A DNA stretch of 16,017 nucleotides from a virus (lineage: Duplodnaviria > Heunggongvirae > Uroviricota > Caudoviricetes), in the IMG/VR virus record IMGVR_UViG_2622736468_000001, one strand, 5' to 3'. Positions within the stretch are counted from its first letter, which is position 1, and each line of letters begins with the position of its first letter. Position numbers and translations under genes: made by a program. This document shows, in pieces, positions 8,765 to 10,916 of the stretch. The notes beneath the pieces are model-generated. The model saw nothing but the letters and a program-made list of their open reading frames with translations, did no database searches and was not told where the DNA came from.

Positions 8765-9904
8765 ATGTCCACACTTAAACCCGCCATCTTCTCTTTCTTT
8801 TCCGGCTCAGGTTTTCTAGATCTTGGCTTCGAAAACTCAGGCTACGAGGTGGTTTTTGTGAATGAATTTCACCCACCATTTATGGATGCTTACAAGCACT
8901 CACGAGCGGTGATGAACAAACCTATCCCACGTTTTGGATATGCAGAAGAGAGCATCGAGGAAGTTGATCACAATAAGTTGAAAGATAATATTAAAGCTCT
9001 CAAGAAAGAAAAAAGACTAATTGGCTTCATCGGTGGCCCACCGTGCCCTGATTTCTCCGTTGCAGGTAAGAACAAAGGTCGCGATGGAGAGAACGGTAAG
9101 CTGTCTCAAAGTTACATCAATATAATTGTTGAGATGAAGCCTGACTTCTTTTTGTTCGAGAACGTCAAAGGTCTTTATCGCACGCTCAAACACCGTGAGT
9201 TTTTTGAGCATCTCAAAAAACAGTTAATGGACGTTGGTTACATCCTTCATGAAAGGTTAATAAATTCGATTGAATACGGAGTCCCGCAAGACCGTGAACG
9301 CATTATTCTGTTGGGTTTCCAAAATAAAAGTCTAACCAAGATCTTTAACTGGAGTGGAAGATTATACCCAGATAGTAGTGCTTTTGAACATAATTGGCCA
9401 ACTACGAATGAATTTGTTGAGAACTCAACACTGGCAATGCCTGAGTCACTTCCTGAAGAGTTAACTGTTGACTACTGGTTTAGGAAAAACAAAGTTTCTG
9501 AACATGTGAACGCAAAACATGTGTTTACTGCTAGGGCTGGGTTAGTTCGCTTTAAAGCTGTAGCTGAAGGGGACGATAGCAAAAAATCTTACAAGCGTCT
9601 TCATCGCTGGAGATATTCTCCAACAGCTGCTTACGGTAATAATGAAGTACATTTGCATCCATATAAGCCACGTAGAATAACAGTTGCAGAAGCACTTGCC
9701 ATTCAGTCTTTACCGAAAGAATTCGAATTGCCATCTTACATGACTCTTTCAAATATGTTTAAAACTGTTGGCAATGGTGTTCCTTACCTTGCGGCTTTAG
9801 GCATAGCAAAATCCATATTAGAGCATTTAGGGATAAAAGATGAATTTAACAGCAATGAATCTTGTGAATGCGATAGCAAATCTACCCAAAAACAGGCAGT
9901 TTGA
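8765..9904 (+). CDS. DNA cytosine-5 methyltransferase
   Basis: Motif I FSGSGF, motif IV GGPPCPDFSVAG (PCP variant of PCQ), motif VI FENV, motif VIII QDRERIILLG, motif X GNGV. Confidence 0.9.
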   Translation: MSTLKPAIFSFFSGSGFLDLGFENSGYEVVFVNEFHPPFMDAYKHSRAVMNKPIPRFGYAEESIEEVDHNKLKDNIKALKKEKRLIGFIGGPPCPDFSVAGKNKGRDGENGKLSQSYINIIVEMKPDFFLFENVKGLYRTLKHREFFEHLKKQLMDVGYILHERLINSIEYGVPQDRERIILLGFQNKSLTKIFNWSGRLYPDSSAFEHNWPTTNEFVENSTLAMPESLPEELTVDYWFRKNKVSEHVNAKHVFTARAGLVRFKAVAEGDDSKKSYKRLHRWRYSPTAAYGNNEVHLHPYKPRRITVAEALAIQSLPKEFELPSYMTLSNMFKTVGNGVPYLAALGIAKSILEHLGIKDEFNSNESCECDSKSTQKQAV

Positions 9905-10916
9905 TTATGTGAATGAAAGTAATGCCGGGAAGATTGTTATCGACTCGATTAAGTTACCAGAAGGCCCAATACGCTTTAAACGTTTCAATCCAACCAAAGG
10001 TGAAACGCTCAGAGATGCCAAAGTTGATAGCATATCTAGCCAAATGCTATGGCGTTTGGCTAACGCAATTCAAGAGGATGCGCCTATCAATTTAGATAGA
10101 GTATTCGGTGCAAGCTATAACTCTCGTTCAGTTATTGAAAGTTTGCTTGCTCATACACCTCAATTTTATTGGTGTAAACTCGACCGCTTAGAGGTTATTA
10201 ATACGAAACAGACGATTAAAAAAGGCCACAAGCATCTTATATACTTACCGAATTTACCACATGAAAACGGCAAGCTTTCTGAATACAAAACTAATATTGT
10301 AATATCAGAGATGAACACAGAAGTTGTATACCAAAGTGTTGATTCAGAAACAATCCGTCCAATTGAAGGCATGTCTATTGAAGAATCAAGAAGACATGCA
10401 CAAATCCAGATAGCATTAGTAAAAATCGGTCATCATCTGGGATACAGAACATGGGTTGCAGCTAATGACCGAGGATTAAAATACAATGGTAAAGCAATCG
10501 CTCAAATGGATGGTGTCATTGACAGTCTGTCTAATGAAAAAGTCCTAAGTTCCTACAGCGAAGCCATTGCTGGCGCAAGATTGATAGATTGCATCTGGTT
10601 TAGAAATGGTAAATTGATGCCTGCCGTGATGGAGATCGAGCATAGTACCGGAATAATAAGGGGTTTAGCACGTATGAAGAACTTCTGTGATTATGCTCCC
10701 CGTCTGCAAGATATACGATGGACAATCGTAGCTCCAGATGAATATAGAGAAAAAGTAATTGAGTTTGCAAATAGACCACAATTTCGTGAGCTAGACACAA
10801 AATTTTTTCCTTACTCTGCCGTAGAAGAATTGTATTCTCTTTGTGAGCGCCGAAAGCCTCAAGGAATAACCGATCAATTCTTAGATTCTTTCATGGAAAA
10901 ATGCATCAAACATTAA
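9840..10916 (+). CDS. MTase-associated protein; putative restriction endonuclease (function unproven, start uncertain)
   Basis: 358-aa ORF overlapping the 3' end of the methyltransferase gene in the same orientation; possible nuclease-like D...E-x-E element (IDCIWFRNGKLMPAVMEIEH). Alternative starts at 9855 (ATG) or 9909 (GTG). Confidence 0.55.
   Translation: MNLTAMNLVNAIANLPKNRQFDYVNESNAGKIVIDSIKLPEGPIRFKRFNPTKGETLRDAKVDSISSQMLWRLANAIQEDAPINLDRVFGASYNSRSVIESLLAHTPQFYWCKLDRLEVINTKQTIKKGHKHLIYLPNLPHENGKLSEYKTNIVISEMNTEVVYQSVDSETIRPIEGMSIEESRRHAQIQIALVKIGHHLGYRTWVAANDRGLKYNGKAIAQMDGVIDSLSNEKVLSSYSEAIAGARLIDCIWFRNGKLMPAVMEIEHSTGIIRGLARMKNFCDYAPRLQDIRWTIVAPDEYREKVIEFANRPQFRELDTKFFPYSAVEELYSLCERRKPQGITDQFLDSFMEKCIKH

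Follow-up and report, generated by a model that had tools for sequence, protein, structure and literature searches.

The stretch analysed here (the window) is 16,017 nucleotides (nt) of a Caudoviricetes virus record, IMG/VR IMGVR_UViG_2622736468_000001, and our analysis concerns two overlapping genes at positions 8765-10916, which encode a cytosine-5 DNA methyltransferase (MTase) and a partner protein of 358 amino acids (aa). The pair is highly likely to be a conventional two-gene Type II restriction-modification (R-M) cassette of the NmeDI family, carried as mobile cargo. The features that make up the locus are:

8765-9904, plus strand: MTase gene, 379 aa, 5-methylcytosine (m5C) modification subunit, with the stop codon TGA at 9902-9904
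9840-10916, plus strand: restriction endonuclease (REase) gene, 358 aa plus stop codon, NmeDI-family Type II REase
9840-9904, plus strand: overlap of the MTase 3' end with the REase 5' end, 65 nt or 21 full codons, read directly from the sequence

Both open reading frames (ORFs) lie where the first-pass annotation of this DNA, made from the letters alone, had placed them, and the overlap of the two frames is 65 nt (9840-9904). The same annotation had called the upstream gene a complete cytosine-5 methyltransferase, and this is borne out by a match of residues 8-352 to Pfam PF00145 (E=3.7e-53) and by the motifs FxGxG, PC, ENV, QxRxR and GNxVP, all of which can be read directly in the sequence. 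The protein also matches the PADLOC model MTase_II (PDLC03355) over its full length (E=3.1e-164) and the NCBIfam model TIGR00675 dcm (E=1e-47). By analogy with M.NmeDI, it most likely methylates RCCGGY/RCCGGB in the inner cytosine context (PMC2095814, PMC7973814).

The partner, for which the first-pass annotation had recognised no family, is assigned to the NmeDI family by PADLOC, by precomputed Pfam matches and by RefSeq names. In PADLOC it matches REase_II (PDLC03534) with E=7.3e-124 and 411 bits, residues 2-356 aligning to profile positions 5-350 of 351, and the exact protein of the window carries a precomputed match to PF27126 (NmeDI_C). A homolog search returned 1704 relatives; among the matches listed, 120 of 120 carry precomputed PF27126, and names such as 'restriction endonuclease' and 'type II restriction enzyme' are frequent among them. 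One source labels close E. coli relatives 'putative type-2 restriction enzyme nmeDIP', and in RefSeq two orthologs of 95% identity are called 'type II restriction enzyme NmeDI-related protein', the remaining ones being 'hypothetical protein'. The partner belongs to the family over its full length, and the Type II R-M pair that had been proposed as the default reading therefore stands, while the suggested new or divergent effector without a recognisable family gives way to a confident match to a characterised REase family. The family itself is already known: it is recognised by Pfam NmeDI_C, by PADLOC and by some RefSeq names, and its prototype was characterised in 2007 (PMC2095814).

We then built an AlphaFold2 model of the REase with 31 homologs, which reached a predicted local distance difference test (pLDDT) score of 84.4 and divides the protein as follows:

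9840-10307, plus strand: N-terminal domain (residues 1-156), putative sequence recognition, with a winged-helix-like subdomain
10308-10373, plus strand: inter-domain linker (residues 157-178), low-confidence and variable
10374-10913, plus strand: C-terminal PD-(D/E)XK cleavage domain (residues 179-358; Pfam NmeDI_C)
10587-10640, plus strand: putative catalytic triad D250 (10587-10589), E265 (10632-10634) and E267 (10638-10640), a D...ExE variant of PD-(D/E)XK

The architecture is of the Type IIS type, in which a linker connects a recognition domain to a distinct cleavage domain. The N-terminal domain gave winged-helix matches, and no close solved structural relative of it was found. The linker is disordered in the model (pLDDT below 50 at residues 157-165, block means of 50-60) and is gapped and of variable length in the family alignment. 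The C-terminal domain, at about residues 179-358, has the topology alpha-beta-beta-beta-alpha-beta in the AlphaFold2 model. The only nuclease-like element that had been noticed in the letters was a possible D...E-x-E arrangement, IDCIWF...AVMEIEH, and these two segments are residues 249-254 and 262-268. All three acids are invariant in the 31 family members aligned, and in the wider superfamily, domain-swapped relatives included, D250 is kept in 107 of 109, E265 in 105 of 108 and E267 in 102 of 106 aligned representatives. In the model D250 stands at the start of the strand 251-255 and E265/E267 at the end of the strand 259-266, so that the conserved acids are placed on neighbouring core strands and the suspected nuclease motif is upheld. 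On the basis of this conservation and placement, D250, E265 and E267 are very probably the active site. Such a D...ExE arrangement is the BamHI-like variant of PD-(D/E)XK, the corresponding residues of BamHI being D94, E111 and E113.

The C-terminal domain is found beyond this family as well. When 1.84 billion representatives were searched exhaustively with HMMER, 838 relatives appeared, of which 60 reach E<1e-30. Many of the 838 match residues ~175-355 only and bear different N-termini, namely EVE domains, TPR repeats and, in one case, an 803-aa N6-adenine MTase/PglX-like protein. The NmeDI_C fusion proteins seen were P0242, P0252, P0253, P0274, P0305 and P0296. The occurrence of one C-terminal domain behind such varied N-termini is indicative of a portable cleavage module, and this apparent portability agrees with a Type IIS-like split of recognition and cleavage. 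The EVE, TPR and MTase fusions could represent Type IV-like or Type IIG/L-like enzymes with the same D...ExE domain.

These fusions are also a reason to ask whether the partner could be a new anti-phage effector paired with the MTase, such as a modification-dependent nuclease or a part of Druantia type II, since the nuclease domain is fused elsewhere to EVE readers of modified bases, among solved structures the N-terminal domain lacks a close relative, and the MTase also matches PADLOC DruM (E=7.7e-140). However, MTase_II outscores DruM for the same protein (544.6 against 464.4 bits), the N-terminal domain of the partner is of the NmeDI type and not EVE, and the characterised member of the family is a classical Mg-dependent REase whose cutting is prevented by the cognate methylase (PMC2095814). 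PADLOC matched none of the other window proteins tested, so that there are no Druantia partners, and Druantia type II was rejected as a candidate, the DruM match standing in the window with no partner genes and no large helicase ORF. Membership in the NmeDI family largely refutes such an effector, which we regard as extremely improbable.

We next compared the linkage and distribution of the pair, scanning one genome per species, which gave relatives in 274 stretches; the linkage counts cover 80 fetched loci. These 80 loci, at 51-93% identity, come from Proteobacteria, Bacteroidota, Bacillota, Cyanobacteria, Elusimicrobia, Actinomycetota, candidate phyla and others. In 78 of 78 informative loci the gene directly upstream on the same strand, overlapping or within ~60 nt, encodes an orthologous m5C MTase (50-93% identity), the remaining two of the 80 ending at a contig edge. 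Within E. coli, a copy of the cassette at 69% nucleotide identity or more was found in 45 of 5426 complete genomes, and the assembly collection has the exact REase protein in 321 of its indexed blocks. Purifying selection on both genes is strong, with dN/dS (the ratio of nonsynonymous to synonymous substitution rates) of 0.04-0.10 for the MTase and 0.04-0.05 for the REase, ranges taken from comparisons with unsaturated dS.

This constraint bears on whether the REase could be inactive or decaying and the MTase now a solitary epigenetic methylase. Orphan RCCGGY methylases exist, VchM being an example (PMC4654547); the REase is a 'hypothetical protein' in most RefSeq genomes, and one carrier strain has frameshifts in the integrase and Rha genes of the island. 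Nevertheless, dN/dS of 0.04-0.10 argues against a decayed remnant, the REase ORF is of full length and keeps all the invariant family residues, the exact protein recurs in the assembly collection as given above, and the pair is intact in three different islands. Loss of the REase function is thus very unlikely.

The junction of the two genes was examined for the correct start of the REase. The residues T4 and A5, which are invariant in the homolog alignment, precede the second ATG, and because they are conserved family-wide, 9840 is the correct start and the overlap of 65 nt is also correct. Annotation of the REase at window positions 9840-9857 is uneven, many database entries beginning at the second ATG and giving a protein of 353 aa, five residues too short. 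The 65-nt overlap is also kept in E. coli copies of 95% and 71% nucleotide identity, and MTase/REase junctions are overlapping or abutting across phyla. The overlap is probably the basis of a translational coupling of the REase to the MTase. Within it, just 5' of the MTase stop, lies a small hairpin-forming sequence, CTACCCAAAAACAGGCAG (plus strand, 9882-9899), which was flagged only by a consensus terminator scan, on the minus strand, and which might influence the coupling. A second hairpin is found beyond the pair:

10921-10937, no strand assigned: GC-rich hairpin GCCGGG-ATAA-ACCCGG, beginning 5 nt past the REase stop

The consensus scan scores this hairpin as a terminator on the minus strand only, and the sequence is weakly suggestive that it is possibly the 3' end of the operon.

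The prototype of the family is R.NmeDI of Neisseria meningitidis, a protein of 351 aa; its gene runs in the direction of nmeDIM, an m5C MTase gene, and overlaps the 3' end of the latter by nine codons (Kwiatek and Piekarowicz, 2007; PMC2095814). R.NmeDI recognises RCCGGY, cuts 12/7 nt away on both sides and thereby releases a 25-bp fragment, is active as a tetramer and prefers two-site substrates, and M.NmeDI methylates RCCGGB (PMC2095814). It has been classed in a review as a 'symmetric Type IIS enzyme' (PMC4081073), and the Neisseria system has a Vsr (PMC7973814). The cassette of the window shares with it Pfam NmeDI_C and PADLOC PDLC03534, a similar REase length (358 aa here, 351 aa in Neisseria), the two-gene Type II organisation and an m5C MTase that is encoded upstream as its own gene, on the same strand and in a frame that overlaps the REase frame. 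The two differ in the overlap (65 nt here, nine codons in Neisseria), in the Vsr gene that lies by the Neisseria locus and not beside the cassette here, and in location, which is an E. coli tRNA-Gly island here and the pheS-pheT interval in Neisseria.

No sequence similarity could be detected to the Type IIS enzymes FokI, BspD6I and PaqCI, and unlike theirs, the site expected here is palindromic, so that cuts would fall on both sides and a single MTase would suffice. The active-site motif of FokI is D...DxK, whereas that of the present enzyme is D...ExE. The enzymes that recognise CCGG-containing sites as Type IIP/IIF (Cfr10I, Bse634I, NgoMIV, SgrAI, AgeI and BsaWI) show no significant sequence homology to the partner, as is likewise the case for NmeDI (PMC2095814); they are single-domain proteins that cut inside the site, in contrast to the NmeDI type with its separate recognition domain and cuts outside. 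Membership in the Cfr10I/Bse634I/NgoMIV family was therefore rejected for want of sequence homology. Type IIB systems (BcgI, HaeIV, BsaXI) have REase and MTase fused and bipartite sites; this membership was rejected as well, since the REase here has no MTase domain and the MTase is a protein of a separate gene, and NmeDI 'differs radically' from Type IIB systems (PMC3177199).

It is less certain how far the properties of the prototype extend to the E. coli enzyme. By analogy, we consider it reasonably probable that this enzyme has the specific RCCGGY 12/7 behaviour. An NmeDI-family R-M system with a recognition sequence or geometry other than RCCGGY (12/7) is unlikely, and the evidence on it is divided. 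Representatives of the family span 30-51% identity, related REases are generally known to shift specificity, and in comparison with the variant of E. coli IAI1 the N-terminal domain diverges faster (dN 0.236) than the C-terminal domain (dN 0.143). Yet the recognition domain shows high conservation between phyla, with 25 invariant residues and a mean column identity of 62%, the co-inherited MTases are 50-93% identical, and the homologs cited in PMC2095814 are all predicted to target RCCGGY/RCCGGB. Less likely still is a broader version, in which the E. coli enzyme would differ from NmeDI in specificity or geometry, NmeDI_C would be a portable module reused with EVE, TPR and MTase, and the cassette might target helper or competitor phages. 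If this doubtful version were true, the E. coli ortholog could define a FokI-like programmable cleavage module with D...ExE and an unsolved recognition-domain fold.

Several results weigh against the NmeDI-type reading of the pair. Scans of a Pfam-A copy and of NCBIfam, a PDB sequence search and Foldseek returned nothing significant for the partner, and of the profile- and structure-based homology search which had been proposed for the 358-aa protein, it was the profile half (PDLC03534, PF27126) that yielded a family, and the Foldseek half did not. The Pfam-A copy scanned predates PF27126, and the empty Pfam-A and NCBIfam scans are due to library age and coverage and not to novelty. The link to R.NmeDI comes from curated family models and source names: a search for R.NmeDI that started from P0175, a relative of 351 aa, brought up no named protein of Neisseria, and the 351-aa metagenomic relative P0389 is not flanked by pheS/pheT. 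Neither the window nor the E. coli loci gave a Vsr-like gene with a Vsr probe in tblastn, and the Neisseria locus has one. Published methylomes of two E. coli strains, MRE600 and ST95 SF-166, hold a partial RCCGGY m5C signal, and these names are absent from the 45 carrier genomes; whether the two strains are in the collection was unchecked. Finally, avoidance of RCCGGY was considered as evidence of the specificity and had to be rejected, so that it lends the expected site no support.

The last point comes from counts over the island (1-13473), which has 2 RCCGGY sites against 11.2 ± 3.1 expected, CCGG itself not being depleted. YCCGGR is depleted equally, and three related islands without the cassette (L082-L084) are alike. 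All 64 palindromic hexamers taken together occur 150 times against 226 ± 14 expected, and none of 300 shuffles was as low. Of the CCGG sites, 35 of 37 are in the asymmetric context RCCGGR/YCCGGY, and 14 of these are ACCGGA. Palindrome avoidance is thus a general property of the island backbone, consistent with a long-term exposure to many Type II systems.

Of the 80 loci, 17 have a Vsr-like gene beside the cassette, located either just past the REase gene or upstream of the MTase gene (L009, L025, L029, L033, L037-L040, L050, L056, L063, L065, L068, L071, L073, L078 and L081). Its presence in these loci and in Neisseria and its absence from E. coli is indicative of an optional accessory.

To place the cassette in its genomic context, we compared the window with complete genomes. 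Positions 1-13473 match three complete E. coli genomes at 99.7-99.8%, which identifies the DNA as that of E. coli, and form an island at tRNA-Gly, adjoining actS/xdhA and the ETT2 type III secretion genes. The island backbone consists of an integrase, an AlpA-type helix-turn-helix (HTH) protein, Rha, an Ash/Icd-like protein, DUF4222, a DUF927 primase, SSB and antiterminator Q. The cassette slot is directly 3' of the SSB gene (window 8541-11570 against islands L082-L084), and related islands at the same site hold ProQ/FinO and PerC regulators in this slot, one of them with a PemK/MazF toxin. The first-pass annotation had put the pair in the cargo part of a satellite-like island, and the presence of other genes in the R-M slot of related islands confirms it. 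The cassette is also found elsewhere with its 65-nt overlap preserved: in E. coli CFSAN029787 (L085) in a defence island by nanC/fimB, among an HNH nuclease, a phosphorothioated-DNA-binding/-dependent REase, an AAA ATPase and a reverse transcriptase, and in E. coli IAI1 (L086) directly 3' of the integrase of a tRNA-Leu island. This occurrence in varied islands indicates that the cassette is a self-contained mobile module.

Two further observations concern the rest of the window. An ORF on the plus strand at 7549-8094, between the DUF927 primase and SSB genes, is conserved across related islands under the name 'hypothetical protein'; it has 181 aa with a GTG start, or 138 aa per gene callers, and no Pfam or PADLOC match was found for it. 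Past 13473 the window diverges from the reference islands, and 13474-16017 carries IS66-family sequence, which appears to be a strain-specific insertion sequence (IS) at the right end of the island, with the following ORFs:

13534-13935, plus strand: HTH-type transposase ORF, 133 aa, at the right end of the window
14082-15620, minus strand: IS66 transposase, 512 aa, at the right end of the window
15670-16017, minus strand: likely TnpB-like ORF, at the right end of the window

On the best-supported view, the cassette would work in the following way. The MTase would methylate its site in host and island DNA, most probably RCCGGY or RCCGGB, and in this way protect both, and the winged-helix-containing N-terminal domain of the REase would read the unmethylated site. 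The C-terminal PD-(D/E)XK domain would then cut the DNA, its D250, E265 and E267 probably binding the metal, and by analogy with the prototype the enzyme is expected to show 'symmetric Type IIS' behaviour, with 12/7 cuts on both sides, a tetrameric state and a preference for two sites. The overlap of the genes would probably couple translation of the REase to that of the MTase, so that no nuclease would be made without methylase. Carried on the island, the cassette would serve to restrict phage and plasmid DNA entering the cell, and it could also stabilise the island.

The discovery value of the pair is small, since the system is already recognised by curated resources. Nevertheless, its annotation can be corrected, most RefSeq records of E. 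coli having a 'hypothetical protein' at this place and often a start five residues short. The NmeDI family is without a solved structure, and the E. coli ortholog is a convenient subject for one. In essence, the locus is a further example of a satellite-like island with a defence cassette in its variable slot.

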